35,104 nt of DNA from Actinobacteria bacterium UBA7524. GTDB taxonomy: Bacteria; Actinomycetota; Coriobacteriia; Anaerosomatales; UBA912. Position 1 is the first letter of the stretch; each line of letters begins with the position of its first letter. Position numbers and translations under genes: made by a program. Of the stretch, positions 6,982-35,104 are shown in pieces. Location: NCBI GenBank assembly GCA_002478275.1, contig DLMY01000053.1, positions 90,347 to 125,450 of the forward strand, given 5' to 3'. The notes beneath the pieces are model-generated. The model saw only the letters and a list, made by a program, of their open reading frames with translations, was not told where the DNA came from and did no database searches.

Positions 6982-7027
6982 CTGAAGCGTGCCTGTCACG
7001 GCACACGATGGCACGAAGGAAGCACAG

Positions 7028-9265
7028 ATGATGTCACGGCTTCGCCGCACCACGCATCGTACTCTCAAGCCCGTGATGACAGCGCTGCTGGCCGCAGCGC
7101 TGGTCCTCGGTTCCGCTCCCGCGCAGCTGGAGGGGCAAGAGCCGACATTCACCTTCATCAGCCGCGGGTTCGGCCACGGCATCGGGATGAGCCAGTGGGG
7201 CGCGAAGGGTTTCGCCGAGAAGGGCTACGGATACGCACACATCCTGCGCCACTACTACGGCTCCGGCGGCACGGACCCCAAGACCGCCTTGACCACGCTT
7301 TCCTCCGAGCCGATCCGGGACGTCAACGTCGACCGCGAGGCGAATTACGACTCGGGCGCCAACGCCGGATACACGCGAAGCTCCTGGAACCTGAGGCCCG
7401 GTCACGCCGGGTCGCAGCTTGCGGTGATGTCGGGTTCGACGGTCGACACGTATCCCGACGGCTGGACGACCATCTCGGCGAGCGGCAACAACGTCGTGGT
7501 CAGAAACGCAGTCTCCGGAGCGACCAAGACCTACGCCGGGACGATCGCGGTGTGGGGTGCGACGGGGTCTCCTCGGCTGACACAGGTACGGGAAGGGACC
7601 GGCTTCTACAACTACGAGTACGTCCGCTTCCGAGGAGAGATGCGCGTCAGCGCCTCCTCGGGGATGCTCAAGCTGATCAACCGCGTCTCGATGACCGAGT
7701 ACCTCTACGGGGTCGTGCCGCGCGAATCGCCGGCGAGCTGGCATATCGAGGCCCTCAAGGCGCAGGCGGTGGCGGCGCGCGGCTACGCGATCACCGCCAC
7801 GCGCGCCGAGCTGTACACGACCACCCGCGACCAGGTCTACGGCGGCCACTCGCGGGGTTCGGACCGCTCGAACACCGAGGCGCACGAGTACGCGAGCACG
7901 AACTCGGCGGTCGACGCGACGGCGCGTCAGGTCGTCACCTACGGCGGTGTGGCCGTGCGCACGTTCTTCGCGTCCACGTCCGGCGGCTATACGGAGCACA
8001 ACGAGAACATCTGGAGCGGAGGAGCACAGTCGCATCTTCGCGGCGTACCCGATCCGTTCGAGCTGGCGTCCGGCTCGAAGTACCACTCCTGGTCAACGGT
8101 GACCTACACTGCGAGCCAGGCCCGCACGCAGTTGCTTGCTGCGGGCGTAGCCGCCTCGGCGCTGCCCGCGGCGATCGCGGACATCCGGGTGACGGCGCGC
8201 GGTGTGTCGGGCCGGCCCACCGCGATCACGATCACGGGCACCGACGGCAAGGCCTACCCGTTCGCACAGTCGAGCATGGACCGCTTCCGCAACGCGTTCG
8301 GGCTCGGCCGCAGTCGTTGGATACACATCAACCCCAAGTCGGGCCGCATCCAGGGCGCCGACCGCTACGAGACCTCCGTCAACGCGAGCAAACGGGTGTT
8401 CACGTCGCCCCAGACGGTGATCGTCGCTGGCGGACGCGCTCCCGCTGACGCGCTGGCGGCATCCGGACTCGCAGGGGCCGTGGGAGGAGCGCCGGTGCTG
8501 CTCACCCCGGCCAGCAGACTCGATTCTCGTGTCGCCGAGGAGATCAGACGACTCTCGCCAGGTAAGGTCTACCTGGTGGGTGGGACAGCCGTGCTCTCAT
8601 CGCAGGTCGAAGCCGACCTGCGGGCGCTGCCCGGTCTCGGTGCCGCCGGTGCGGTGCAGCGCCTCGCGGGAAGCGACCGTTACGGAACCGCCCGTGTCAT
8701 CGCACTCGAGATCAAGGCGCGTGGCGTGTCCACTCCCCGTGCGATCGTGGTGAGCGGCGAGAGTCTGGCCGACGCTGTCGCAGCTGCCGGGCTCGCGTAC
8801 TCGCGCAAGCTGCCGATCATCCCCGTGAAGGCTGCGACGGTGCCGGGTTCCTCGGCAGAGGCGCTTCAGGCGCTGGGTGTGACCGAGTCGCTCGTGGTGG
8901 GCGGTGAGGCGGTCGTGGGAGCGGGTGTGTTCGGTGAGCTGCCGGGCGCGAAGCGCATCGCTGCCGGCAAGGACCGCTACGAGACCGCGGGTCAGCTGGC
9001 CGATTACATCACGGCTAACGAGGGCTTCAACTGGGGAAGCGTATACGTCTCGAGTGGGCATTCGCTTGTTGACGCGCTGTCGGCGGGGCCGGTCACCGGG
9101 CACAACCGCAACCCGATGTTGTTCGTGCGTCCTTGGGGCGAGGCCTCTGCGACCACGGACAGGCTCGTCGCCCGCAAGAGCTCGCTTTGGCGGGTGCACA
9201 TCGTCGGTGGCGAGGCCGCCGTGCCCGGTTGGAATCAAAGCCGCATCGAGACGGTGTTCGACTAG
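7028..9265 (+). CDS. Secreted SpoIID/LytB lytic-transglycosylase-domain protein with three cell-wall-binding-2 (CWB2) repeats
   Basis: Signal-like N-terminus; GFGHGIGMSQWGA..ILRHYY; YLYGVVPRESP..EALKAQAVAAR; three GxDRYxT repeats with DAL/DAV and PVLL/PIIP/PMLF; RBS GAAGGA favours ATG 7028. Confidence 0.88.
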   Translation: MMSRLRRTTHRTLKPVMTALLAAALVLGSAPAQLEGQEPTFTFISRGFGHGIGMSQWGAKGFAEKGYGYAHILRHYYGSGGTDPKTALTTLSSEPIRDVNVDREANYDSGANAGYTRSSWNLRPGHAGSQLAVMSGSTVDTYPDGWTTISASGNNVVVRNAVSGATKTYAGTIAVWGATGSPRLTQVREGTGFYNYEYVRFRGEMRVSASSGMLKLINRVSMTEYLYGVVPRESPASWHIEALKAQAVAARGYAITATRAELYTTTRDQVYGGHSRGSDRSNTEAHEYASTNSAVDATARQVVTYGGVAVRTFFASTSGGYTEHNENIWSGGAQSHLRGVPDPFELASGSKYHSWSTVTYTASQARTQLLAAGVAASALPAAIADIRVTARGVSGRPTAITITGTDGKAYPFAQSSMDRFRNAFGLGRSRWIHINPKSGRIQGADRYETSVNASKRVFTSPQTVIVAGGRAPADALAASGLAGAVGGAPVLLTPASRLDSRVAEEIRRLSPGKVYLVGGTAVLSSQVEADLRALPGLGAAGAVQRLAGSDRYGTARVIALEIKARGVSTPRAIVVSGESLADAVAAAGLAYSRKLPIIPVKAATVPGSSAEALQALGVTESLVVGGEAVVGAGVFGELPGAKRIAAGKDRYETAGQLADYITANEGFNWGSVYVSSGHSLVDALSAGPVTGHNRNPMLFVRPWGEASATTDRLVARKSSLWRVHIVGGEAAVPGWNQSRIETVFD

Positions 9266-9425
9266 CGCGTAGACCAGAGGGCTCATGCGCGGCTTCAAGC
9301 GGCCTTCGACTCTGGCCGATACTCACCATGTGGGCCTCAGTATCGCTTGTGTGTATCCCGGCCCCGGTGAGGTTTCGAATCGCCAGACACGAGTCTGCGA
9401 ACTGTAGTGATCGAGGTGTGTTCGT

Positions 9426-11723
9426 ATGAGAAGAATGCTCTCCCTTGCGCTTGTCCTGGCGCTGGTGCTCCCCGTCGGAACGTTCGTGCGTCCCGAGCAG
9501 GCGGCGGCCGACTATCAGCCTCCCGACATCAAAGTGGCGGTCGTGCGCTCCCAGGCCTCGCAGGACTGGGTGGACAAGTACAAGCGCGGTTACGGGATCT
9601 TGCTCAAGCAAGGCAAGGTCTACGACTGGCTGACGTCCAAGGGCTGGAAGGTCGAGTACATCAACGACGCCGACCTTGAGAACATCAACAAGCTCAAGCA
9701 GTACGACGCGGTCGTGTGCATGTGGGTCTTCGCGATGTCGCCTGCCGCCTCGCGTACCGTTACCCGGTACGTCGCCGAAGGTGGGGGACTTGTGACGCTC
9801 TACGCTTCGTCGCGCGTGGCGCCCGGTGTCGGCGGTAATGAGAGAGACGACCACTGGGTGTACATCATGAATCACCAGGGATGGGAGTGGGGGCCGCTGT
9901 CCGAGGTGAACCAGACGTACTTCATCGACGACGTGGGTGCGATGAAGTTCAGGGCCAATCCGGTGTGGGGGCATCCGATCGTGACCGGTGCAGCGGGGAT
10001 ACTCTCCGCGCGAGGGCACAACAACGGTGACATGACGCTGTATCGCGACCAGAACCCGGGCGCCTGGGTGGAGTTGCCCAAGATGTTGTCGGGCAACACC
10101 AACACGTCGCAGTTCATGACGATGACGCAACTGTCCACACCCACGGGTTCGAAGTCATATCCGGGCACGCATCCGGGGGCTGTGGCCTCCACATACCTCG
10201 GTGGGCGGATGGCGTACTTCTACTTCTCGCCGACCGACATGTTACCCAACTTCAACCAGGACGGTAGCGCGGACAGGGTGCTGTCGACGGGCGTGAAGCA
10301 GGGCGAGGTCTCGGCAGCCTACATCGAGGCCGCTATCGGATGGGCGGCCGGCAGCGGAGGGCGACCCGGGGTGCTGGTCCGCGACGGCAGGACGAACGCG
10401 ACACTCAACGTCTATCAGGACGGCATCTACGCATCCCAGTACGTCACGAACCGCGGGAACGTGAGCGTGACCGGGAATCTCCACTTCCGGGTGTTCTCGC
10501 CGAGTGGCGCGAAGGTCCGGGAGGTCGTGCTCTACAAGATCGGGACCGAGCCGGGCGAGACGAACCGCTACTCGCACCAGTACGTGGTGTCGCGCCTGGA
10601 GCCAGGCACGTATCGGGTGGAGGTCGAGTACCACACGACCTATCCGCTGTACGAGCGTCGGTACGTGGAGACGGCGTACGTCTACCGTGGCCAGGGCACG
10701 AACATCCCGACCGTTTTCGACCGGCAGAGGACGAACGGCCAGGTCGTCTACGACCCTCGCGTGGTCCGTCACGCGGGAGACAACCGCTACCGGACCGCTC
10801 TGGCTATCGCTGATGCTGCGGGAGGGTATCCTCGGCAGAATGGGTATGTGGTCGTGGCGAGCGGCGAGGGTGGAGCTGACGCGCTCGTTGCATCGGGAGT
10901 GGCCGGGGCGTACGATGCGCCGCTGGTGTTGACGCGCCAGGACCTGTTGCCCGCGGTGGTCGAGTCCTGGATGACGAACAAGGCCCGGGGCTTCAGTCAG
11001 GTGATCATCGTGGGTGGGGAGGCGGCTGTCTCCTCGGCGGTCGAAGGAAGGCTCAGGACGCTGTTCGGGCAGGGCAACGTCAAGAGGCTTGCCGGCGATG
11101 ACCGCTACGGGACTTCGGCGGCGGTCGCCCGCGACATGAAAGAGCAGCTGGGCCGGAGCTATGACGGCGGCATGGTCGTCGCCAACGGTCGCGCGCTGGT
11201 GGATGCTGCAGCGGCGAGTGCGATAGCCGCGGGCCGCAAGTGGCCGATCATCTACGTGCGCTCGAACAGCGTGCCTGCTGAGCCCGGTGCCGCTGTCTCC
11301 GAGATCACGAGCGACACGACCGCTCCTTTGCGCGCCTGGATCGCCGGAGGTACCGCGGTGGTCGGGACCGGCGTCGAGACCGAACTCAAGGCCTTGCAGC
11401 CGCGGCTGACGATCTCACGGGCAGCGGGTGCGGACCGCTATGACACCGCCGCGAAGCTCTCCGATCTCGCATCCGCGTCGGGGTCATCGTGGAACACGGT
11501 CGGCATGGCGTCCGGAGTGAGTCTGGCCGATGCGTTGTGCCTCGGCTCGCTCGTGGGCCGTGCGAACGGACCGATGCTCCTGACCAACGGGGCGAGCATG
11601 ACGGTGCCTACCGAGAATCGCATCAAGAACAACAAGTCGCAGATCCGCACCGTGGCGGTGGGTGGCGGGGTGGCCGTCGTCAGGCATGACGTGACGGCGA
11701 GGATATCGTCGCTGTTGCCGTAG
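9426..11723 (+). CDS. Secreted CWB2-repeat surface protein with uncharacterised N-terminal domains
   Basis: Signal peptide MRRMLSLALVLALVL..AAA; three repeats (AGDNRYRT, AGDDRYGT, AGADRYDT) with DAL and PLVLT/PIIYV/PMLLT. Confidence 0.85.
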   Translation: MRRMLSLALVLALVLPVGTFVRPEQAAADYQPPDIKVAVVRSQASQDWVDKYKRGYGILLKQGKVYDWLTSKGWKVEYINDADLENINKLKQYDAVVCMWVFAMSPAASRTVTRYVAEGGGLVTLYASSRVAPGVGGNERDDHWVYIMNHQGWEWGPLSEVNQTYFIDDVGAMKFRANPVWGHPIVTGAAGILSARGHNNGDMTLYRDQNPGAWVELPKMLSGNTNTSQFMTMTQLSTPTGSKSYPGTHPGAVASTYLGGRMAYFYFSPTDMLPNFNQDGSADRVLSTGVKQGEVSAAYIEAAIGWAAGSGGRPGVLVRDGRTNATLNVYQDGIYASQYVTNRGNVSVTGNLHFRVFSPSGAKVREVVLYKIGTEPGETNRYSHQYVVSRLEPGTYRVEVEYHTTYPLYERRYVETAYVYRGQGTNIPTVFDRQRTNGQVVYDPRVVRHAGDNRYRTALAIADAAGGYPRQNGYVVVASGEGGADALVASGVAGAYDAPLVLTRQDLLPAVVESWMTNKARGFSQVIIVGGEAAVSSAVEGRLRTLFGQGNVKRLAGDDRYGTSAAVARDMKEQLGRSYDGGMVVANGRALVDAAAASAIAAGRKWPIIYVRSNSVPAEPGAAVSEITSDTTAPLRAWIAGGTAVVGTGVETELKALQPRLTISRAAGADRYDTAAKLSDLASASGSSWNTVGMASGVSLADALCLGSLVGRANGPMLLTNGASMTVPTENRIKNNKSQIRTVAVGGGVAVVRHDVTARISSLLP

Positions 11724-15905: not shown

Positions 15906-17328
<1,423 letters not shown>

Positions 17329-20226: not shown

Positions 20227-20482
20227 CGGTGCTTTCACTCGGGTCTGTGGTTGCGGGCGCTGCGGCGCCTCAGTCCATGGTAGACGCGGCCGAAAGGACC
20301 CACGTAAGCCGGCGGCATCGCCGTCGCGCGAGCATGGCGCGTCTTAGGGGTAAGTCGTACCGTCCGATGAAGGTCGCATCCCGCGGCCTCGGGCGAGAGG
20401 GCCTTCAGTGAGATCGCATCAAGCGAAAGCCCCGGTATGCGAGTGTGGGGCCAAAGACCAGGTCAGCCGGGTGAAAGCACCG
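20227..20482 (+). ncRNA. raiA motif RNA (large structured ncRNA)
   Basis: 16-bp closing stem CGGTGCTTTCACTCGG/CCGGGTGAAAGCACCG (one G-U); recognised conserved blocks TGTGGTTG, CCACGTAAG, GAGCATGG, TTAG..GTAAGTC, GGCGAGAG, AGTGAGA, AGCGAAA, GCGAGTGTGGGG.CAAAGACCAGGTCA; typical comF...hpf context. Confidence 0.9.
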
Positions 20483-24654: not shown

Positions 24655-25206
24655 ATGGACATGATCATCAAGGGCCGTCACATGGCGGTCACAGAGCCCA
24701 TCCGTGACTACGCGCAGGAGAAGATCGGCCGCGTCACCAAGATCATCGACGGTGACCACATGAAGGCGGAAGTAGAGCTGTACGCCGAGAGGAATCCGGC
24801 CATCGAGAACGGGCACGTCGCCGAGGTCACCGTGTGGACCAAGGGGCCCGTGATCCGTGCGAAGGAAGCATCGACTGACATGTACGCTGCGATCGACCTG
24901 GTATCTGAGAAGCTCGAGACGCAGTTTCGCAAGTACAAGGGCAAGAAGATGGACCGGTACTCCGGCAAGCACATGCCGCCGCCGCTGCCGGTGACCGAGA
25001 TCCTGGAGCCCGAAGAGACCGAGCCGAGCATCGTCAAGACGAAGTCCCCCGCCGTCAAACCCATGACTGCCGAGGAAGCCATCTTGCAGCTGGAGCTGCT
25101 CGGGCATGACTTCTTCGTGTTCACGTCAGCGGAGACGGAGCAGGTCAGTGTGTTGTATCGGCGCAACGACGGCGACTACGGACTGATCGAGCCTCGGGTG
25201 AGCTAG
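24655..25206 (+). CDS. hpf: Ribosome hibernation promoting factor, long HPF / RaiA
   Basis: IKGRH..VTEPIRDYA, DMYAAIDLV..KLE.Q.RKYK, KPMTAEEAILQLELLGHDFFVF..VLYRRNDGDYGLIE; RBS AAGGAGG. Confidence 0.95.
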   Translation: MDMIIKGRHMAVTEPIRDYAQEKIGRVTKIIDGDHMKAEVELYAERNPAIENGHVAEVTVWTKGPVIRAKEASTDMYAAIDLVSEKLETQFRKYKGKKMDRYSGKHMPPPLPVTEILEPEETEPSIVKTKSPAVKPMTAEEAILQLELLGHDFFVFTSAETEQVSVLYRRNDGDYGLIEPRVS

Positions 25207-25235: not shown

Positions 25236-25270
25236 GCTGTGGCGGGCCTTCGGGTCCGCCACAGTGGTTC
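25236..25270 (+). terminator. Intrinsic terminator-like hairpin after hpf
   Basis: CTGTGGCGGGCC-TTCG-GGTCCGCCACAG, 12-bp stem with UUCG loop; weak U tail. Confidence 0.7.
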
Positions 25271-25425: not shown

Positions 25426-26094
25426 ATGGACCAGCAGACATCTCGGCTATCCGTTGAGGATATCGAGATCACACTCGGGCAAGTCGCCGAGATCAAGGCC
25501 GCGCGCGTGGTCGCCTCTCCAGAAGGTGTGATACAGGAGATCCACGTACTCGCGCTCCCGAACAAGACTCCCAAGCAGCTGGTCAGGGACATCGAATCCA
25601 CTTTGATGGCGACATACGGTCTTGTCGTCGACCACAAGAAGATCTCCATCGCACAGCTCGGTACCGACGTTGTGGCGATCGAACCCGAGCCGTCCCAGCC
25701 TGTTCAGTCACGCGCTCGTATCGTCGAGATCAACGCGAACGTCAACGGCGCGTATGCGGCCGTGGCCGTCACGCTGAAGCTCGAGCACGACGTGTATGTC
25801 GGCGAGGCTTCGGGCCCCGCGAGTCAGACGGGCCGCATGCGACTGTTGGCGCGTGCGACACTTGACGCGGTCGATCAGTATCTGCATGGTACGTATAGCT
25901 TCGATCTTGAAGACGTATCGATCATTCAGCTTGGTAAGGAGAGGGTCGCAGTCTCCTGCATCACGATCGTCACCCCGATGGGGGAGCAGTCGTATGCGGG
26001 CTCGGCGCTCGTGAGACAGAATGAGAAGGATTCCATAGTTCGGGCGACGCTTGATGCGATAAACCGTCGCCTTGGCTGCTTGACAACCACATAG
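25426..26094 (+). CDS. Conserved hypothetical cytoplasmic protein with a C-terminal duplicated beta-beta-beta-alpha module (LeuA regulatory-domain-like)
   Basis: ATG after AGGGGGG; IQEIHVLA..PKQLVRDIES..DHKKISIAQ; internal repeat RATLDAV / RATLDAI. Confidence 0.75.
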   Translation: MDQQTSRLSVEDIEITLGQVAEIKAARVVASPEGVIQEIHVLALPNKTPKQLVRDIESTLMATYGLVVDHKKISIAQLGTDVVAIEPEPSQPVQSRARIVEINANVNGAYAAVAVTLKLEHDVYVGEASGPASQTGRMRLLARATLDAVDQYLHGTYSFDLEDVSIIQLGKERVAVSCITIVTPMGEQSYAGSALVRQNEKDSIVRATLDAINRRLGCLTTT

Positions 26095-26170
26095 ACGATT
26101 TCGGCCAGGGCCAACGCCGTGTGCAAATCAGAAGACACTGTACGCAACAAACCGAGCGGAGCGGACAGCG

Positions 26171-26227
26171 TTCTTCCATTACTAGCGGAATGGGAGAAGA
26201 CCACAGTTCCAAGAGGGAGGTCTTCTC
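26171..26227 (+). promoter_or_regulatory. Mutually exclusive hairpins over the RBS of the small ORF
   Basis: TTCTTCCATT (26171-80) pairs with AATGGGAGAA (26189-98); alternatively GAGAAGACC (26194-202) pairs with GGTCTTCTC (26219-27), overlapping SD GGGAGG (26215-20). Confidence 0.45.
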
Positions 26228-26230
26228 AAC

Positions 26231-26305
26231 ATGAAGCGAATCATATTTCTCCTCAGCTCGCTCGCAGCGGTTCTTTACGCTGGCGGGGCGATGGCGCGAC
26301 TTTAG
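26231..26305 (+). CDS. Small signal-peptide-like ORF, 24 aa: MKRIIFLLSSLAAVLYAGGAMARL (putative signalling-peptide precursor)
   Basis: SD GGGAGG 10 nt before ATG; basic n-region, hydrophobic h-region, AGGA, short tail; occupies an otherwise empty 275-nt gap; below the ORF track cutoff. Confidence 0.75.
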   Translation: MKRIIFLLSSLAAVLYAGGAMARL

Positions 26306-26369
26306 TCATTCCAGTCATGAGCAGGTTGCAGCGGTTGGCCCTCAGTTTCCGTGAAGAAGGAGTGGAGTC

Positions 26370-27659
26370 ATGAGAGTCAGACTCTACTCCTTCTTCGTGT
26401 TCTTGGTTGCATGCTGCGCGGTTGTGGCTCTGTACCTTCGGGAACCGTTGCCTGACTTTCGTCTGGTACTTGTCATGGGGATCATGGCATTGGCCGCTGA
26501 GTCACTGGCCTTCAGGCTACAGCATGGCGGCACCGTGTCACTCATGTTCGCAGTTGCCTTTGCTGCCGTGCTATTGGGTGGACCGACTGCCGGAGTCGTG
26601 GTGGCAGTTGCAGGAGCTGCGCCACCGGCGGACTTCATTGAGAGGAAGCCAGCGTATGCGATGCTATTCAACCTGTCGCAGCTCGCTCTTGGGGCCGCTG
26701 GCGCTGGGACGGCGTATCAGCTTCTTGGGGGAGTACTGTTGTATCAGCCGGGCGTTTCTCCCCCGCCCGTAACTCAGTGGATAGTGGCCGCGCTTCTTGC
26801 CGCTCCCATCTACGCTTTGATCAACTTGGGATTGGTCACGGTTGCGGTATCCCTGAAATGCGGCCTGCCCTTGTCCACTGTCTGGAAGAGCTATCAGGCC
26901 TACTACGTCAGGAGCCTCCTGCCCCTGACGTTGCTTGGACTGGTGCTGGCACAGCTGATCGCGGTTGCTGGACTGCCCTATGCTCTGCTCCTCCTAGTCC
27001 CCTTCGCAGTTTCCTGGCGGACCTTCCGCGTATACCAGCAACAAGAGGAAGCCTACTTCGGCACGGTGCGCTCCCTCGTTGCCGCGCTTGAGGCGAAGGA
27101 TCCGTACACGCGTGGCCACGCCGAGCGGGTTGCCGAGTATGCAAAGTACGTCGGCGAGGCAGCGGGGCTGTGTGAATCCGAGGTGAAGAAGATCGAGTGG
27201 GCAGCACTTCTGCATGATATCGGCAAGATCGCAGTGAGCTGCAGGACACTTACTAAGCCGGGAACGCTCTCGGAAGGAGAGTATTCCACCCTCCGCGAAC
27301 ACCCGAATGTCGCGGCAAGCATCCTTCAAGAGGTGGGATTCCTTGAAGGCATCGTCCCACTGGTTACTGCGCACCACGAGCGTATCGATGGGACAGGGTA
27401 TCCCCTCGGTTTGGGCACTAATCAGATTCCGGTGGGCGCTCGTGTGCTTGCGGTGGCCGACGTGTTCGACGCGATTACGTCGGAGCGTTCCTACCGGCCG
27501 GCCCTTGATGTTGACGCTGCATTGCACGAGCTGCGTGCTGTGGCTGGCACCCAGCTGGATGAACGTTTCGTGAGCCTGCTTGCTTCCGGTATCACCGACG
27601 GCGCGATATCGATTGACACAGCTTGGGTTCGTCCGGAGGCTGGCGATGCCCATGACTAG
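26370..27659 (+). CDS. Membrane-bound HD-GYP phosphodiesterase (multi-TM sensor, MASE9-like)
   Basis: About 7 TM, then EAKDPYTRGHAERV, LLHDIGK, EHP, HHERIDGTGYP, VADVFDAITSERSYR. Confidence 0.92.
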   Translation: MRVRLYSFFVFLVACCAVVALYLREPLPDFRLVLVMGIMALAAESLAFRLQHGGTVSLMFAVAFAAVLLGGPTAGVVVAVAGAAPPADFIERKPAYAMLFNLSQLALGAAGAGTAYQLLGGVLLYQPGVSPPPVTQWIVAALLAAPIYALINLGLVTVAVSLKCGLPLSTVWKSYQAYYVRSLLPLTLLGLVLAQLIAVAGLPYALLLLVPFAVSWRTFRVYQQQEEAYFGTVRSLVAALEAKDPYTRGHAERVAEYAKYVGEAAGLCESEVKKIEWAALLHDIGKIAVSCRTLTKPGTLSEGEYSTLREHPNVAASILQEVGFLEGIVPLVTAHHERIDGTGYPLGLGTNQIPVGARVLAVADVFDAITSERSYRPALDVDAALHELRAVAGTQLDERFVSLLASGITDGAISIDTAWVRPEAGDAHD

Positions 27660-28851
27660 CAGGAAGGTCATCGGAGCGGCGGCCGTAGCTGGCATCGTTT
27701 TGCTGTACTTGTTCTTGCCCGACAGACTGCTGGCAGAGCCAGGGGACTGGCTTCTCTTCGCGGTCTTGGCTGCGGCGTTCGCCTTGCTCGACTCACTGCC
27801 GCTGAAGCTGTCTGGTGGTGGTTCAGCGCGCACGGATGCCGGCGTAGCCACCGCAGCGATCATCCTGCTAGACCCAGGCGCGGTGTTCGCCTGTCTGGCG
27901 CTTGGAGCTGGGCTGTCTTTGTTGTTCGTGGATGTCGAGAGTGCTCCTCGCTCGGCGGCGCTTGATCTTGGTCGGCGCCTTGCAGTCATCTACGCGGTTG
28001 CCTGGGCCTACGAAGTGTTCATCGGGCAGGTCTCGCTAGGTGCTACCCCGTACTTTGAGATGTTGATCGCCGGCGGGGCATGCGGACTTCTCTATGCCGT
28101 GCTCGACATGCTCGGGTATCTCTTCACTGACGGAAGAACCCCAGGGTCTTCGTTCATCGACGCCTCTCTGGGGCTTCTCAAGCTTCTTGGTCCGATCTAC
28201 CTGAGCCAGATATCTGTCGGAATCGTCCTGGCGATCACCTATGCAGGTTTGGGCATCCTCGTGTCGCCGATTCTTGCGTTGCTGATGGCGCTGATGCAGC
28301 GAAGCTTCGGCATGCTTCTCGATATCCGCACTGCCTACATGAGAACGATATCCGCTCTTGCCCACCTGCCTGAAATGCAGTTGAACGGCAAGCGAGGTCA
28401 TGCAGAGAGAGTGGCGGATCTGTCGGCCGCCGTGGGTCGCCGACTGGGCTTGAGGGGCAACCAGGTCGAACGTCTCTCATTCGCCGCATTGCTTCACGAT
28501 ATCGGTCTGTTGGGCTTGTACGAAGAAGAAGGTGCGCCCCTCGATCCCGCAGACGTGCTGGCCGAGTCATCGCGGCGCGGCGCTGACCTTGTTGCGGAAG
28601 TGGACTTCCTCGCCGAACTGGCACCCGTCATCAGGCTACAGGCTCAGGAACCCGAGCGGGCGCTCAGTCTTGAGCCGGACGATTTGCTGATGGCGCAGAT
28701 CATCAGGGTCTGTTCAGACTACGACGACCTTGCGGCCGCGGTGGTGGATGCGCGGGAGCGTCTGGATCGCCTGAGGTCTAGTGTCAGTCCTGTCCACTCC
28801 AAGAAGGTGCTCAGGGCCCTGACTTCTGTGGTGGGAGGGTGGGCCAGGTAG
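27646..28851 (+). CDS. Membrane-bound degenerate HD-GYP-like protein
   Basis: Similar TM region; keeps GHAERV, LLHDIG and SDYD but lacks HP, HHE and GYP; ATG 27646 after GGAGG, overlapping the upstream stop. Confidence 0.85.
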   Translation: MPMTSRKVIGAAAVAGIVLLYLFLPDRLLAEPGDWLLFAVLAAAFALLDSLPLKLSGGGSARTDAGVATAAIILLDPGAVFACLALGAGLSLLFVDVESAPRSAALDLGRRLAVIYAVAWAYEVFIGQVSLGATPYFEMLIAGGACGLLYAVLDMLGYLFTDGRTPGSSFIDASLGLLKLLGPIYLSQISVGIVLAITYAGLGILVSPILALLMALMQRSFGMLLDIRTAYMRTISALAHLPEMQLNGKRGHAERVADLSAAVGRRLGLRGNQVERLSFAALLHDIGLLGLYEEEGAPLDPADVLAESSRRGADLVAEVDFLAELAPVIRLQAQEPERALSLEPDDLLMAQIIRVCSDYDDLAAAVVDARERLDRLRSSVSPVHSKKVLRALTSVVGGWAR

Positions 28852-29412
28852 ATGGTCATGCTCGATGGGCTCATCCTCGGTCTCGTGATCGGTCTGCTCA
28901 CGAGGGGTCGTATCCGCAACCTGGAATACCACGAGATTCGCTGGGGATGGCTGTTCGTTCTGCTGCTTTCCGTCCAGATGGTGGCACCGAAGATCGCCGT
29001 GGGAGTCAGCGGTGTCGTGTTGCTCTGGCTCTTCTGGGTCGTTCCTGTTGTGGGCTGCCTGGTGATCGCCGTCCTGAATATCCGGCAGCCGGGCTTCCCC
29101 CTCATTCTTCTGGGACTCTTGTCCAACTTGCTTGTCGTCTCGCTGAATTCGGGGATGCCGGTGCTGGTCCCGAACGCGTTGATGGTGGGCGGCTCATCGG
29201 AACAGGTGCTCGTCAGCGTTGGGACATCCTGGCTGCACCGGGTTCTTGAAGTGGGCACCAGACTGCCGTGGTTAGGCGATGTGATCCCGATCCCCGGTCC
29301 CAGTTGGCACAGGGGGCTTGTCAGCTACGGCGATATCCTGCTTTCTGCGGGTGTGGGTCTCTATGTACTCTGGCTGATGCACTCGGGAGACTCCGAGACC
29401 GCTCAGGTTTAG
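28852..29412 (+). CDS. DUF5317 family membrane protein
   Basis: GRIRNL..IRWGWL, N..PG..L..LG..SN..V..LNSGMPV, LPWLGDVI, SYGDIL. Confidence 0.8.
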   Translation: MVMLDGLILGLVIGLLTRGRIRNLEYHEIRWGWLFVLLLSVQMVAPKIAVGVSGVVLLWLFWVVPVVGCLVIAVLNIRQPGFPLILLGLLSNLLVVSLNSGMPVLVPNALMVGGSSEQVLVSVGTSWLHRVLEVGTRLPWLGDVIPIPGPSWHRGLVSYGDILLSAGVGLYVLWLMHSGDSETAQV

Positions 29413-29473
29413 ATTCCGTTAAGATGTATCCCTTAGCATGTATCTGACAGGCTCATCGGATACAGGTGGCAGG

Positions 29474-29550
29474 ATGAGGGGTGCGGGGATTCCTGGTTTC
29501 GGTGCGACCGTTGAGAGGCGCAGGCTTCTCGACGTGATTGTGCGTGCACC
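29474..29550 (+). repeat. 77-nt block repeated at 32830-32906 (1 mismatch)
   Basis: Direct comparison of the 5' ends of the two paralogs. Confidence 0.9.
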
Positions 29551-32500
29551 AGAGCCCGTGGTAGTGCTGGCGGCCCCTGGAGGTTTCGGCAAGAGCGTGC
29601 TTGCTGCCCAGCTCGCCAAGCGTCATGGAGGCGATGCCGTTTGGGTAGATTGCTCAAGTCTGGAGTGCAGCAGGGAGCAGCTATTTGAAGTGGTGCGCAG
29701 TGCGATCGAGGGCTCGGTTCGAACACCGCGCGAGCGCTACGCCCTGTCGCCCATGCCCGACGTGCTCGATTTGCAGGTGGAACTCCAAGAGGCTATCGTC
29801 GGCATGGCGGGATCCGTCGTCGTGCTCGATGACGTGCAGGCTGGTGCGGAGCTCGGCGCGATTTGCGACATTGCCGGCATGCTGACGAGAGCGCATGAGC
29901 CTTCCAGGCTGGTTGTGACCACGCGTTGGGAATCGGCTGAGGTCGCGCAAGGGCTTGTCGGTGCCCTCGTGTTGTCGGCCGAGATACTTCGGCTTGACGA
30001 CGATGAGTCTACCGAAGTGATTGGACTGTATAGCTCAGGCGCAGAGCTTGATCCATTGGTCACGCATATCGCAAGGGCCGCTAGTGGACGCGTCGCGACA
30101 ATATGCGTGCTTGCACGCCAGGCTGCGCTAGGCTCCTTGACTGACTCGCTCGAGGGCATGCCCTCGATTGACCTTACTGCGCACCTACGTGAGCTACTCG
30201 ACGCTCAGCTCGATGATCGGGCACAACACTGTCTCTATGCCTGTGCTCTTCTCAGGACGGGCGGGATTGTGGAACTCGAACGCGTGGTGGGCCGCCCTGT
30301 CTTGCACGAGCTTGAGGTCATCGGTCATCTTATGCCGCTCGTTGACGTTGAGCGAGAGGCTGGGTTGCTTCGCTTTCGCGTACACGATATCGCCGCTGAG
30401 GTTTATGAAGAGGAGTGCTTTCGAAGGCTGGGCGAGAGCGGTCCGGACAGGCTTTCGGGGCTGCTTTCCGCAACACTTGATAGCCTGGCGGCGTCCTCTC
30501 GTCTGGAAGCGCTGTTCTTGCTGGCGCTTCGTCGCGCAGGCACGGATGTCGTTGTCTCATGGGCACTTCAGGAGGGGCACAGACTGCTCGAATCCGGTGC
30601 CCTTGGGTTGCTCTCGGATGTGTTCGTCAGGCTTGGAGGCGCGGAGGTCGTGCGCTATCCGAGGCTGCTGATGCTTCAGGCGGGCTTGTTACGCGAGCAG
30701 TCGCTCTATGATGAAGCTCTGCACAAGACCAGGGTTGCCCGTGACCTGGCAAGAAGTGAGGGAGATGTCGCAACAGAAGTGCAGGCCCTGATGGTGGAAG
30801 CTCGACTCCAGCTTGATATGGGCCTTCCTGCTGGTGCTTCGGACTGCCTTGAACGTGCAATACTCAGCGACGGTTTAGACATCGAGTCACGTACGATGGC
30901 ACATGGGTATCTAGGACTCTGCCTTGCCCTGAACCTGGATCGAGAGGGTGCGGAGTATCACTTTGATAAGGCGGAGGAGCTGCTATCTGCGCACAGCCTC
31001 GGTGCAGCAATCAAGTACAGGGTGCGCAATTCGATGGGTTTTGCCACCGCCGTGGTCTACGGGCGGTGGGATCAAGTACTAAGGCAGTCAGTCGCACTGT
31101 CAGATGCCACTGGTGTGGACTTCAGTCTGCGCATGCAGGCACTCGGGAATCTGGGATGCCTGCACAAGGCGCTTGGTCATACTGAGCGAGCGTTCAGCAT
31201 CCTCGGTGAGACCATTGAGCTATGCGAGAGGTACGGAATCACCATCATGCTCAGGTGTTTCTTGGGTGACTTAGCGGCATGTCATGCTTCGGTAGGAGAC
31301 TACACCGCCGCGGATCAGCGGTTCCTTGAGTCCGTTGGTCCTCCGGGCTCCGTGGCTCTAAGCGAGTTCACTTATCACTGCGCCTGTAGATCCGCTTGGA
31401 CACGCGCAAGCGGTCGTCCGGCAGAGGCCCTCAGTCTGGCAGAAGAGACACTGGAGGACTGCAGCCGGTACGGAGCCCCCGAGCAGTTCTCGTGGCACGC
31501 CACCCTTGAGCTCGCTGCGAACCTCCTCGCGTACGGGGACATCAATGCGGCGGTGCGCCTAACCTCAATGATCCGTGAAACGACCGTCGCAGCCGAGGCT
31601 CTGTTACATACACTACTTGCCGACTGCATCCTCGCCGAGGCCGACCGCAAAGCAGGTGACGTTGACCGGGCCGCTGAACGCATCGCTCCTCATGCCGACT
31701 ACATCCTCACCGACAGCGCCAACTGGTGGCTCGGTATGTACATCCGCGCTTTCCCGCACCTGCTGGGCTTCGTGGCCACCGCGTGCGATCCCGATGAGCT
31801 TTCCGTCTACACCCTCGGCATGGTGCTTCCGCAAGACGCCGAGCGCACCCTCGCAGCTGCACGTGAGGTGATGGAGCCCCAGACCTGGCGAAGGCTCGCC
31901 GCACGCCTGGTCGATGCCGAGACCATCTCTCGCATCCAGCGCCCACAGCGCCATGGCGACGTCACGCCGTGCCAGGTGCGCATGTTCGGCGGACTTGAGG
32001 TCACGATCGTTTCGCGTACCGTGCGCGAGAAGGAGTGGGGCAAGCGTAAGGCGCGGCTGCTTTTCGCGATGCTCATCTTGCAGCAGGGCAAAGACGTGCC
32101 ACGCGACCAGGTCTACGAGTACTTGTGGCCCGAGATGGATGCGGTGCGGGCGCGCAACAACCTCTACGTGATCTGGAGCGCGATGAAGATCGCTATCACC
32201 GGACAGGCGCAGCGTGGCACGGAACTGCCGTATGTCGAGAACGTTGGCGGGGTCTGCCGGGCGGTCATGGAGCACATCGACGCAGATATCGTCCAGTTCG
32301 ACAGATGCCTGACAGACGCTGCCAGGGCCACATCCTCAGGCGACATCGACGAGGCGCTTGCGGCCTACGAAACGCTCACAACGCTCTATCGTGGCGAGCT
32401 TCTGCCGGGGGATGTCTACGACGACTGGTTCTCCTCGGCAAGGGACAGGTATCGGGTGGAGTTCGGCGAGGCGATGCTCCGGGCGGTCGGGTTGTGCGAG

Positions 32501-32761
32501 GAGAGAGGCGATGCTGCGCGTGCGCTGCATTTTGCGCGCAAGGGGCTGGGCGCAGATGCGTGGCGCGAGGATCTCTACCAGGCGACGATGCGGAACCTGA
32601 TCGCCGGTGGGCAGCGCGGTGCGGCCATCGAGACGTACCTGGCGTGCCGCAGCCGGCTGAGTGAGGACCTGGGTCTGGACCCTTCCTCGGAGACGACCGA
32701 GCTCTATCAGCAGGTGTTGGCGATGGAGGAAGGCGAGCCCTCGGGCGACCTGCCCTGCTGA
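29474..32761 (+). CDS. Large STAND-type regulator: MalT-like NTPase, TPR sensor, C-terminal winged-HTH and BTAD (SARP-type)
   Basis: APGGFGKS (Walker A), VVVLDDV (Walker B), VVTTR, FRVHD; VRMFGGLEV..LWP..ARNNL; LYRGELL..DDW..REDLY..LGLDPS; start taken from homology with the paralog (track start 29438). Confidence 0.9.
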   Translation: MRGAGIPGFGATVERRRLLDVIVRAPEPVVVLAAPGGFGKSVLAAQLAKRHGGDAVWVDCSSLECSREQLFEVVRSAIEGSVRTPRERYALSPMPDVLDLQVELQEAIVGMAGSVVVLDDVQAGAELGAICDIAGMLTRAHEPSRLVVTTRWESAEVAQGLVGALVLSAEILRLDDDESTEVIGLYSSGAELDPLVTHIARAASGRVATICVLARQAALGSLTDSLEGMPSIDLTAHLRELLDAQLDDRAQHCLYACALLRTGGIVELERVVGRPVLHELEVIGHLMPLVDVEREAGLLRFRVHDIAAEVYEEECFRRLGESGPDRLSGLLSATLDSLAASSRLEALFLLALRRAGTDVVVSWALQEGHRLLESGALGLLSDVFVRLGGAEVVRYPRLLMLQAGLLREQSLYDEALHKTRVARDLARSEGDVATEVQALMVEARLQLDMGLPAGASDCLERAILSDGLDIESRTMAHGYLGLCLALNLDREGAEYHFDKAEELLSAHSLGAAIKYRVRNSMGFATAVVYGRWDQVLRQSVALSDATGVDFSLRMQALGNLGCLHKALGHTERAFSILGETIELCERYGITIMLRCFLGDLAACHASVGDYTAADQRFLESVGPPGSVALSEFTYHCACRSAWTRASGRPAEALSLAEETLEDCSRYGAPEQFSWHATLELAANLLAYGDINAAVRLTSMIRETTVAAEALLHTLLADCILAEADRKAGDVDRAAERIAPHADYILTDSANWWLGMYIRAFPHLLGFVATACDPDELSVYTLGMVLPQDAERTLAAAREVMEPQTWRRLAARLVDAETISRIQRPQRHGDVTPCQVRMFGGLEVTIVSRTVREKEWGKRKARLLFAMLILQQGKDVPRDQVYEYLWPEMDAVRARNNLYVIWSAMKIAITGQAQRGTELPYVENVGGVCRAVMEHIDADIVQFDRCLTDAARATSSGDIDEALAAYETLTTLYRGELLPGDVYDDWFSSARDRYRVEFGEAMLRAVGLCEERGDAARALHFARKGLGADAWREDLYQATMRNLIAGGQRGAAIETYLACRSRLSEDLGLDPSSETTELYQQVLAMEEGEPSGDLPC

Positions 32762-32829
32762 GGGGGGTGGGCAGGTAGGCTCGGTGACGATGTACATGTG
32801 TGTGGTGGGCACAGGATGCAGGTGATTAG

Positions 32830-35104
32830 ATGAGGGGTGCGGGGATTCCTGGTTTCGGTGCGACCGTCGAGAGGCGCAGGCTTCTCGACGTGATTGTGCG
32901 TGCACCGGAACCCGTGGTGGTACTCGCCGCCCCGGGTGGTTTCGGAAAGAGTGTGCTTGCTGCTCAAGAGTGTGCTCTCGCCGAGGGGCAGACGGTGTGG
33001 GTCGACTGTTCAAGCCTTGAGTGCGGCCGCGAGCAGCTCTTCGAAGCGGTGTGCGGGGAGGTTGAAGGGCCACGGCGCACACGCAGAGAGCGCTCAGCGC
33101 TTTCGCCCATGCCTGACGTCTTCGACTTGCAGGTTGAGCTGCGCGAGACCCTCGAGACTCAAGAGCACCCCCTGACACTTGTGCTCGATGACGTGTGCGC
33201 AGGAGCCGACCTGTCTGCGATATCGGAGTTGAGTTCGATGCTCGCGCGGCAAGACGCGCGCTCGAGGCTGCTGCTTACCACCCGCTGGGAATCATCCTGG
33301 ATCGCCGAGGAGATACCTGGAGCCCTCGTAGTCTCGGCAGAAGCATTGCGCCTCGATGATGGTGAGTGTGCAAGGCTTGTCAGCATGTATCTTGGCGAGG
33401 GCGCGGACTCTTCACTCGCGGATAGGATCGCGCAGGCCGCATGTGGTCGCGCCGCGACGGTGTGTGTGCTGGCGCGCCAGGCCGCGTTAGGCACGCTTTC
33501 GGTAGACCTCGATGGAAGCCCATCGATAGACCTGACCGCCCATCTGCGTGCTCTGCTCGACGGCCAGCTTGATGAAAGGGCCAGGCGCTGCCTGTATGCT
33601 TGCGCGCTACTGAGGTCTGGCATGCTTGCCGATGTCGAGCGCATCTCAGGAAGGGCCGCAGGAGAGGATCTCGTCCTGATTGGTCATCTCATGCCGCTCG
33701 TTGATGTGTCGGCGAGCGCAGGCTCTTTGTGGTTCCGGGTGCATGACATCGCAGCGGAGGTCTACGAGGAGGAGTGTTTCCGCAGGCTTGGGGGCGATTG
33801 TCCCGAGAGGCTTTCGGAACTGCTGGGCGCGACACTTGAGATGCTCGCAGATGCCGGCCGACATGAGGCGCTGTTCGTGCTGGCGTTGCGCAGAGCCGAC
33901 AAACAAACGCTCGTTGACTGGACGCTTCGTGCCGGGCGTGTCCTCCTTGAGTCAGGCGCTTATGGGTTGCTCGAGGAGGTCTTCGCATCACTTGGGCGCG
34001 CGGGGACGCTTCGCTACCCAGGGCTCCTGCTCCTACATGCTGAGCTTCTCAGGGAGCACCTGCGATACGAAGACGCCTTGAGCAAGGCGACGGTCGCGCG
34101 CGGTCTTGCCAAGAGCGAGGGAGATGCATTCGTTGAGGCTGGTGCACTCATGGTCATGGCGAGACTGCAGATCGATCTCGGGCTCATATCGAAAGCGGCC
34201 GATTCTCTGCAGGATGCGCTCAGTCTTGGGGTGCTTGACGTCGATTCTGAGGCGCTCGCGCATGTCTATATCGCCGCGTGCCTTGAGCAATCACAATGCA
34301 GCCACGAACAAGGGGAAGCGCACCTTCAACACGCGCTTCGCCTGCTGGAAGAGGAGTGCTTGAGCTCTGAGACCACGGCCCGAGCCAGGAACACGCTGGT
34401 TAGCGTGACGGCGAACATACAGGGCCGATTTACGGAGTGTCGAGAGTCGCTGAGTCGTGTTCTTGATCTCAAGGGACTGTCTTTCAGTCTACGCATGCTC
34501 GTGATGGGTAACCTCTGTGTCTGTGAGTGGGAAGCGGGTCACTTCGATCGAGCCAGTCGGATGCTATCGGAACTATTACAGCTGAGTCGCACACAAGGGG
34601 CTGCAACTCTCGAGGTGTTCTTCCTTGGGGTCATCGCCAACTGTCATGCGGGAAAGGGCGAGCACGAGAAGGCCGCTGAACTGCTTGCACGGGCGAAAGA
34701 GGGTTGTGTTTACCAGGAGTCGATCTACGATTTGGCCTTGCTCGCCATCTACCAATCGGTTCAGATGCGTGCGGTACATGACATCCCCACTGCTATGGAG
34801 GCTGCGGAGGAGGCACTTGAGCTGTGCGAGCGGACGGACTTCTGCTGGATGGACTGGTACGCCAGTCTAGAGCTTTCTGCGAACCTCCTCGCGTACGGGG
34901 ACGTGCGTGCCGCGGTGCGTCATGCCTCAAGCCTCCGCGAAGCCACTGCTCCGGCGGAAGCCCTCGCGTACACCCTGCTCGCCGACTGTATTCTTGCCGA
35001 GGCCGACCGCAGAGCAGGTGACATCGAGCGGGCCGCTGAACGCATCGCCCCCCACGCCGACTACATTCTCAGCGATAACCTCAACTGGTGGCTCGGTATG
35101 TACA
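32830..35104 (+). CDS. Second STAND-TPR regulator paralog, open to the window edge (partial)
   Basis: Manual frame-1 translation MRGAGIPGFGATVERRRLL..APGGFGKS..LVLDDV..NWWLGMY has no stop; in-frame TAG immediately precedes the ATG; absent from the ORF track. Confidence 0.92.
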   Translation, partial: MRGAGIPGFGATVERRRLLDVIVRAPEPVVVLAAPGGFGKSVLAAQECALAEGQTVWVDCSSLECGREQLFEAVCGEVEGPRRTRRERSALSPMPDVFDLQVELRETLETQEHPLTLVLDDVCAGADLSAISELSSMLARQDARSRLLLTTRWESSWIAEEIPGALVVSAEALRLDDGECARLVSMYLGEGADSSLADRIAQAACGRAATVCVLARQAALGTLSVDLDGSPSIDLTAHLRALLDGQLDERARRCLYACALLRSGMLADVERISGRAAGEDLVLIGHLMPLVDVSASAGSLWFRVHDIAAEVYEEECFRRLGGDCPERLSELLGATLEMLADAGRHEALFVLALRRADKQTLVDWTLRAGRVLLESGAYGLLEEVFASLGRAGTLRYPGLLLLHAELLREHLRYEDALSKATVARGLAKSEGDAFVEAGALMVMARLQIDLGLISKAADSLQDALSLGVLDVDSEALAHVYIAACLEQSQCSHEQGEAHLQHALRLLEEECLSSETTARARNTLVSVTANIQGRFTECRESLSRVLDLKGLSFSLRMLVMGNLCVCEWEAGHFDRASRMLSELLQLSRTQGAATLEVFFLGVIANCHAGKGEHEKAAELLARAKEGCVYQESIYDLALLAIYQSVQMRAVHDIPTAMEAAEEALELCERTDFCWMDWYASLELSANLLAYGDVRAAVRHASSLREATAPAEALAYTLLADCILAEADRRAGDIERAAERIAPHADYILSDNLNWWLGMY

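Follow-up and report, generated by a model that had tools for sequence, protein, structure and literature searches.

A widespread micropeptide gene linked to MASE9 sensor proteins and DUF5317 in Actinomycetota: a candidate membrane signalling module

Short peptides and small proteins enter bacterial signalling in several ways. RRNPP, SHP-Rgg and agr are peptide quorum-sensing cassettes, in which the RRNPP receptors are helix-turn-helix (HTH)-TPR proteins, while the small membrane proteins MgrB and SafA, both acting on PhoQ, and KdpF are modulators of sensors and pumps. Membrane-bound HD-GYP and GGDEF-EAL enzymes with MASE-type domains are common; the only studied pair, as far as the available text of the source goes, is HdgA/HdgB of Streptomyces (PMC6205966). 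The available portions of the published accounts describe an hdgA (vnz24090)-hdgB (vnz24095) operon in Streptomyces venezuelae, which encodes a conserved six-transmembrane HD-GYP protein followed by a degenerate six-transmembrane HD-GYP protein, both of them recovered in the membrane fraction (Al-Bassam et al. 2018, PMC6205966; PMC13232838). The MASE9 domain, according to the part of the source available, has been proposed from sequence to bind a ligand within the membrane, and is found with GGDEF-EAL outputs as well (Galperin and Chou, bioRxiv 10.1101/2021.11.05.467447). Here we describe a locus that joins such a pair to a previously unannotated micropeptide gene. It lies on the plus strand of a 35,104-nt stretch of DNA (the window) from Actinobacteria bacterium UBA7524, whose genome is 1.8 Mb in size and 83% complete. 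Comparison with related loci suggests that the micropeptide, a MASE9 sensor and the membrane protein DUF5317 belong together. The features of the block are as follows.

24655-25206, plus strand: hpf, with Ribosomal_S30AE and S30AE_C domains
About 25236-25266, plus strand: GC-rich 12-bp hairpin read from the sequence, a likely terminator without a U-run
25426-26094, plus strand: 222-aa protein of unknown type, predicted to be cytoplasmic, without a match in Pfam or NCBIfam
26095-26230, plus strand: conserved leader RNA in the 136-nt spacer, a candidate cis-regulator defined by alignment and helices
26231-26305, plus strand: gene of the 24-aa micropeptide MKRIIFLLSSLAAVLYAGGAMARL, with GGGAGG 10 nt upstream
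26370-27659, plus strand: MASE9 domain (E 7.5e-9) with an intact HD-GYP phosphodiesterase (HD_5, E 2.4e-35), predicted to be HdgA-like
27646-28851, plus strand: MASE9-like membrane domain with a degenerate HD-GYP domain (HD_5, E 3.4e-5), HdgB-like
28852-29412, plus strand: DUF5317 (Pfam, E 1.1e-21), its first base directly after the preceding stop codon
29438-32761, plus strand: STAND protein of 1107 aa with AAA/NB-ARC, TPR and a C-terminal BTAD of SARP type (E 3.8e-20)
32830-35104, plus strand: second NB-ARC/TPR STAND protein, cut by the contig end

A first-pass annotation, made from the sequence of the window, had described a compact same-strand block after hpf, and each of its elements is present on the plus strand where it had been placed. 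Both of the STAND-TPR-BTAD regulators that it named contain NB-ARC and TPR regions and the first carries a BTAD; that of the second is not visible, as the contig end cuts the gene. Its label for DUF5317, a peptidase, is an interpretation rather than an observation. The hairpin 3' of hpf, which lacks a U-run, is unflagged in a scan for consensus terminators. The open reading frame (ORF) of the second HD protein spans 27580-28851 and is open from a TTG at 27580, with the ATG at 27646 as its likely start, and overlaps the first HD-GYP gene.

The small ORF is a real, unannotated gene under purifying selection, far beyond chance, because 32 of 33 related Coriobacteriia loci carry it and because its substitutions follow a coding pattern. 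A simple pattern search recovered it in 30 of the 33, and inspection accounts for the rest: the ORF has a longer start in L048, a divergent 30-codon ORF occupies the same place in L059, and L064 is cut by a contig end. The ORF lies 128-144 nt past the stop codon of the 222-aa gene (114 nt in one locus, L060). Gene starts at related loci are ORF calls of this analysis; the genomes are kin, and these and later counts overstate independent support. For the 23 ORFs that are exactly 24 codons long, nucleotide diversity at the three codon positions is 0.34, 0.17 and 0.53, and single-base codon differences are synonymous in 1579 cases versus non-synonymous in 697. The first-pass expectation of a conserved small ORF led by a Shine-Dalgarno (SD) sequence at homologous DUF5317/HD-GYP loci was confirmed in the predicted form, with a basic N-terminus, a hydrophobic run, G-A and a short tail.

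No Pfam or NCBIfam family covers the peptide. The product in the window consists of MKR, 17 hydrophobic residues, GGA and a four-residue tail. The 53 distinct peptides follow a common pattern: a basic N-terminus, then a hydrophobic stretch of about 17 residues in which S, A and L are frequent, a G-A motif (G in 52 of 53, A in all 53), and a tail of 4-6 residues that reads x, aromatic, K/R (50 of 53), hydrophobic, with the K/R two residues from the end. Over 25 loci of the order, the mean pairwise identity of the peptide is 0.59, with 0.60 in the core (residues 4-20) and 0.24 in the tail. At the same loci, MASE9 scores 0.29, the HD-GYP domain 0.50, the degenerate paralogue 0.27 and DUF5317 0.29. 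No other component of the module is as strongly conserved as the peptide, and nowhere is conservation higher than in its hydrophobic core.

A second complete block is found on another contig of the host genome (L003, C12:1-8062, minus strand), encoding a 220-aa protein, a 24-aa ORF, an HD-GYP protein, a degenerate HD-GYP protein, DUF5317 and an AAA protein. This copy has its own leader, and its peptide ends in AWKM versus MARL in the window; most of the differences between the two small ORFs are synonymous or conservative. A paralogous copy with a different tail provides a natural test of peptide-to-sensor specificity. Elsewhere, L161 and L165 have tandem duplicated peptide genes, and L194 and L195 carry a second peptide gene on the opposite strand, after two HD-GYP genes and adjoining the gene of an extracytoplasmic function (ECF) sigma factor.

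Within the order, the syntenic run comprises an ABC ATPase, hpf, the 222-aa protein, the peptide, two HD-GYP genes, DUF5317 and a STAND regulator. Thirty loci extend far enough to cover the position of DUF5317, and 28 of them have it (22 detected by tblastn, 6 more by Pfam); neither method found it at L039 or L059. Since synteny inside one order cannot tell which genes belong together, loci outside the order were examined, with Actinomycetota as the scope of the survey. Species-representative genomes scanned with a DUF5317 alignment yielded 58 loci, 41 of which (L082-L122) are of other than the syntenic type of the window; nearly all of these are labelled Thermoleophilia (Solirubrobacterales, Thermoleophilaceae). 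At these loci, the DUF5317 gene lies 3' of a gene for a membrane GGDEF-EAL protein of about 680 aa, usually with an overlap of 1-4 bases, and Pfam confirms this arrangement at 6 of 8 sampled loci. The GGDEF motif is found in 29 of 29 of these proteins and the EAL motif in 28. A homologous ORF of 29-31 codons is located 30-60 nt 5' of the GGDEF-EAL gene at 31 of the 34 loci long enough, and at one of the three misses, L117, the ORF is present at a shifted position.

DUF5317 occurs in 121 of 301 sampled Actinomycetota genomes, or 112 of 292 if nine genomes flagged as unpublished are left out. A further 39 DUF5317 loci, none of them from those nine genomes, were chosen for family spread. By tblastn, a gene related to cyclic di-GMP (c-di-GMP) turnover or a MASE-type gene adjoins DUF5317 at 21 of them, and a hidden Markov model built from the 53 distinct peptides matches 9 of them at E<0.05 and 4 more weakly. 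Wherever the downstream gene could be identified, it encodes a membrane sensor and is immediately preceded, on the same strand, by the peptide gene, even if the sensor gene is divergent from DUF5317. At L193:2055-3565, a MASE9 histidine kinase (HisKA_3, HATPase_c) follows immediately on the peptide, and both DUF5317 and the 222-aa protein adjoin; a Crp-family regulator and a glutamine synthetase are also found in this neighbourhood. Because the peptide precedes a kinase here, its constant partner, judged from gene order, is MASE9 and not the output domain. The association of the peptide with a membrane receptor, as first proposed, holds whether the output is HD-GYP, GGDEF-EAL or histidine kinase.

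The membrane domain of the first HD-GYP protein was assigned to MASE9 by Pfam (residues 6-209; E 7.5e-9, 36.2 bits against a cut-off of 24.3). The HD, HHE and GYP motifs of this protein are all intact in the window, as in HdgA-type proteins. Its orthologues retain HD and HHE in 27 of 27 cases and the strict GYP pattern in 16. The second protein lacks HHE and GYP, as in HdgB-type proteins, its HD_5 match (E 3.4e-5) falls under the cut-off, and HHE is present in only 1 of 26 orthologues. The membrane domains of the two proteins are homologous (hhalign probability 97.9%). Compared with the membrane domains of the Thermoleophilia GGDEF-EAL proteins, the first HD-GYP protein aligns at 99.3% (E 6e-21) and the degenerate paralogue at 95.3%. 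The linkage outside the order, together with these homologous membrane domains, suggests that the conserved core consists of the micropeptide, a MASE9 sensor and DUF5317, with interchangeable outputs. Eight GGDEF matches were found in the host genome, which is thus predicted to make c-di-GMP.

The third member, DUF5317 (PF17248), was recognized at 77.9 bits, against a cut-off of 25. An alignment of 30 homologues defines the invariant residues N76, G88, N92, N99, M102, P103, D143, S158, G160, D161 and G167. The AlphaFold2 (AF2) model has a predicted local distance difference test score (pLDDT) of 93 and consists of five helices, with a loop of about 55 residues between helices 4 and 5. The two invariant aspartates are 18 residues apart, ahead of the last helix. 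By the positive-inside rule, the loop and both aspartates would face outward, on the same side as the C-terminal end of the peptide. The model has no Foldseek match at E<=0.001, and a wide VIA-align search of solved structures returned generic, unrelated helical proteins only (best Z 7.7), with no LspA among the matches. Alignment with the LspA of the host itself has an hhalign probability of 0.2%, and its single local alignment puts D143...S-x-G-D161 on the two-aspartate stretch of LspA. The LspA-like motif is a lead, not evidence of homology. The idea that DUF5317 is a free-standing fragment of MASE9 was ruled out, as hhalign probabilities are below 1% against all three membrane-domain profiles. 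A full-text literature search found nothing on DUF5317, nor on small proteins that partner HD-GYP enzymes, and the available portions of the MASE9 and Streptomyces papers name none of these partners.

The spacer in front of the peptide gene is more conserved than the surrounding proteins and carries the invariant element GAGCGGAGCGGACAG. Two helices are supported by the alignment. P1 pairs 26171-26180 with 26189-26198 around the invariant loop ACUAGCGG; 96.9% of cells are paired and 4 of its 10 pairs are changed on both sides. P2 pairs 26194-26202 with 26219-26227 (95.4% paired), encloses the SD sequence at 26212-26220 and ends 3 nt before the start codon. The helices share the five bases 26194-26198, so P1 and P2 are mutually exclusive. 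Because of this exclusion, and because P2 holds the SD sequence, the predicted anatomy is that of a translational switch. A small 5' hairpin is weak (64.5% paired), and an ACUGUC-GACAG helix was rejected at 32% paired. A covariance model of the leader matches 39 of 41 loci searched, among them two from other families that show compensatory changes (L187, GC 0.41; L153, GC 0.38). It has no match in L156, despite the presence there of hpf, the 222-aa protein and the peptide. In L048, about 430 bases between the 222-aa gene and the peptide gene, at the expected site of the leader, read as N. The host genome contains two copies, one before each peptide gene.

The window leader shows conserved structure, covariation and an expression platform, which are the general hallmarks of a riboswitch. 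It matches no Rfam family, the c-di-GMP riboswitch classes I and II included, whether the cut-off is the gathering threshold or E 10. Another 15 loci with the peptide or DUF5317 are likewise without an Rfam family match. At the same position in Thermoleophilia, a riboswitch of the c-di-GMP-I clan is present in 5 of 5 loci of one peptide type and in 0 of 3 of the other, which have the second leader described below. Four of the five matches score best as the c-di-GMP-I-GGC variant, RF03167 (L085:5538-5627, L090:5424-5505, L094:5458-5532, L119:5414-5494). The ligand of this variant was not found in the literature searched, including the available main text of Weinberg et al. 2017 (PMC5737381), which has nothing on it. 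The c-di-GMP-I riboswitch (RF01051, with its GGC variant RF03167) thus occupies the same position before a homologous peptide gene, and the window leader has no detectable similarity to it. Since the Thermoleophilia relatives carry a c-di-GMP-I riboswitch at this position, the window leader is a well-motivated riboswitch candidate, and a candidate for sensing c-di-GMP or some related molecule; binding by a protein is an equally good possibility. A second conserved leader of about 100 nt precedes MKKF-type peptide genes in Solirubrobacteraceae (L099:5455-5636, L106, L114, L116, L082, L089 and L111). It has a covarying hairpin directly before the SD sequence and no Rfam match even at E 10, and is a candidate for another orphan riboswitch.

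Building on the observed genes, their conservation and linkage, the membrane-domain homology and the RNA helices, we infer a topology, a set of physical contacts and an effect on activity, which together would make up a signalling module in the membrane with the MASE9 sensor domain at its centre. The leader RNA would control translation of a 24-residue single-pass peptide whose basic N-terminus lies inside and whose G-A-x-aromatic-K/R-hydrophobic end reaches the outer face of the membrane. The peptide would be made together with an active MASE9-HD-GYP phosphodiesterase and a degenerate MASE9 paralogue (the HdgA/HdgB pair), as well as five-helix DUF5317, and would serve as a subunit or intramembrane ligand of the MASE9 domain. 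DUF5317, with its conserved aspartates and asparagines on the same outer face, may act on or with the C-terminal end of the peptide, and the output would be a change in c-di-GMP hydrolysis. We favour the view that MASE9 has the peptide as its in-membrane partner or ligand and that DUF5317 acts at the outer face of the membrane, and we put the chance of this being right at about even. The peptide gene is always ahead of the sensor gene and probably co-transcribed with it, which places the peptide with MASE9 like a subunit. Since the hydrophobic core is the best-conserved part of the module, an in-membrane partner is favoured over a secreted pheromone; a core conserved twice as strongly as its presumed partners seems to fit helix-helix contacts better than a throw-away signal sequence.

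Several observations weigh against this view. The lipoprotein signal-peptide profile LPAM_1 has a sub-threshold match to residues 1-14 of the peptide (window 26231-26272; 18.8 bits, cut-off 20), in one of four peptides tested, and this peptide lacks cysteine. The invariant small residues at -3/-1 before the 4-6 residue tail suit a signal-peptidase site as well as they suit helix packing, and the variability of the tail (identity 0.24) is what would be expected of a specificity determinant. The invariant polar residues of DUF5317 look catalytic rather than structural. A recognizable peptide is present in just 9-13 of the 39 wider DUF5317 loci. Finally, deletion of hdgA or hdgB in S. venezuelae gave no phenotype, which the authors, in the portion of the paper available, put down to a possible lack of activating signals in their test conditions (PMC6205966).

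The first-pass annotation offered a different model, in which the small ORF is a precursor and DUF5317 a new aspartyl peptidase that cuts the G-A site, with the short diffusible product being sensed by MASE9 outside and/or the TPR regulators inside, as in quorum sensing. The signal-peptide-like shape, the small residues at -3/-1, the weak LPAM_1 match and the variable tail all speak for it, as do the two invariant DUF5317 aspartates 18 residues apart, with the sole local LspA alignment falling on the two-aspartate region of LspA, the tandem peptide genes of some loci, and the probable placement of the peptide tail and the DUF5317 loop on the outside by the positive-inside rule. However, the model would discard the hydrophobic core, where the module is most conserved, and a disposable signal-peptide region should show the reverse; the released product would be 4-6 residues only, with a near-invariant K/R. 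DUF5317 has no fold or profile similarity to any peptidase. The block contains no Opp-type transporter, exporter or oligopeptide importer, and the upstream ABC system has an amino-acid-type binding protein (SBP_bac_3). The proposed role of the TPR regulators as peptide receptors is not supported: the STAND genes follow the module in the order of the window only, and tblastn detected none of them at the Thermoleophilia loci or at the 39 further Actinomycetota loci. An RRNPP receptor would have an N-terminal HTH with TPR-like repeats and be found beside the peptide everywhere, whereas these proteins combine NB-ARC, TPR and a C-terminal BTAD. The STAND regulators are lineage-specific neighbours, which in this order may regulate the module or respond to its output. 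The earlier interpretation as a whole is partly supported, and the diffusible signal at its centre we consider unlikely.

A variant without diffusion keeps the cleavage. DUF5317 would process the peptide in the membrane, and the retained fragment, or its removal, would switch MASE9 in the same cell as a proteolytic on/off step. Such a step reconciles the conserved core with the catalytic-looking residues of DUF5317 and fits the tight coupling of the operon, in which start and stop codons abut or overlap, but it too lacks a peptidase fold match for DUF5317, and we regard it as rather improbable. A bolder combination appears to us similarly doubtful: a peptide-to-second-messenger device in which DUF5317 founds a new family of outward-facing aspartyl peptidases cutting at G-A, the cut decides c-di-GMP degradation by the MASE9 protein (or, in other lineages, synthesis), and the leader represents a novel class of riboswitch that recognizes c-di-GMP or a nucleotide related to it. 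Very improbable is a purely regulatory upstream ORF, whose translation sets downstream expression with the leader and whose product is functionless, because the peptide sequence, although encoded between a structured leader and an enzyme gene with its SD sequence held in P2, is kept across two classes behind three unrelated leaders (the c-di-GMP-I riboswitch, the second Thermoleophilia leader and the Coriobacteriia leader), and synonymous changes dominate.

The 222-aa protein upstream of the leader is a frequent but dispensable companion of the module. Within the order, 36 of 41 genomes encode it; it adjoins DUF5317 or the peptide in other arrangements (L153, L156, L160, L187, L177, L178 and L191), and was not found in five Thermoleophilia genomes. 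It has no sequence match in Pfam (LeuA_dimer included), NCBIfam or the PDB. The AF2 model (pLDDT 83) contains a small N-terminal domain and two beta-beta-beta-alpha units, which Foldseek matches to the leucine- or isoleucine-binding regulatory domains of LeuA and citramalate synthase (3hps_B, E 9e-6; 3f6h_B, TMt 0.60 over 129 columns); weaker matches are to double-stranded-RNA-binding domains. The modelled fold is that of the LeuA/citramalate synthase regulatory domains, a likeness of fold only, and its initial description as ligand-binding-like is fair on this basis.

Outside the block, the plus strand of the window contains a full-length raiA RNA (RF03072; 157 bits, E 1.7e-39) at 20234-20475, 5' of amino-acid ABC transporter genes and unrelated to the module. 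An S-adenosylhomocysteine hydrolase ORF at 15918-16802 (plus strand) is only 294 aa long, with about one third of the NAD-binding domain covered and a dip in GC to 0.58; it may be truncated or frameshifted. Two neighbouring proteins of about 760 aa at 6989-11723 (plus strand) have triple CWB2 cell-wall-binding repeats, one of them with SpoIID. They adjoin LytR-CpsA-Psr, Wzy_C and GT4 genes in a cell-envelope cluster.

These results add a widespread unannotated small gene to Actinomycetota genomes and give DUF5317 a context. A dedicated, presumably co-transcribed micropeptide and a conserved partner provide direct experimental handles on the input of the sensor. At least one orphan leader RNA, and probably two, are gained at a position where relatives carry a c-di-GMP riboswitch.

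The closest described system is hdgA/hdgB. There, as in the window, an intact membrane HD-GYP protein is paired with a membrane paralogue from the same operon that lacks the GYP residues; the portion of the account available (PMC6205966) makes no mention of a micropeptide, DUF5317, a leader RNA or a 222-aa protein. Likewise, where the available part of the MASE9 study envisages an unidentified ligand in the membrane, a dedicated micropeptide gene and DUF5317 accompany the domain in the window and its relatives, and one locus has a histidine kinase output. DUF5317 resembles LspA (MEROPS A8, PF01252) in a pair of aspartates, spaced by about 18 residues, where the last membrane helix begins, on the predicted outer face, and in a candidate substrate that looks like a signal peptide. 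It differs in that the micropeptide has no lipobox cysteine and the host genome has a separate LspA.

The likeness to the RRNPP, SHP-Rgg and agr cassettes consists of a short hydrophobic peptide gene near membrane proteins and, in this order, regulators that contain TPRs. However, the regulators of the window are NB-ARC/TPR/SARP proteins of about 1100 aa, which are absent from most peptide-bearing loci, and there is no Opp system. Compared with an agr-type cassette, DUF5317 matches PF17248 only and no AgrB or Eep-type family, and the receptors are HD-GYP proteins rather than an AgrC-type kinase. Like MgrB, SafA and KdpF, the micropeptide would be a single membrane-spanning chain, a few dozen residues long, that acts on a polytopic membrane sensor. 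It has no sequence relation to them and, unlike them, is encoded directly before its presumed target across classes, together with a third conserved membrane protein.

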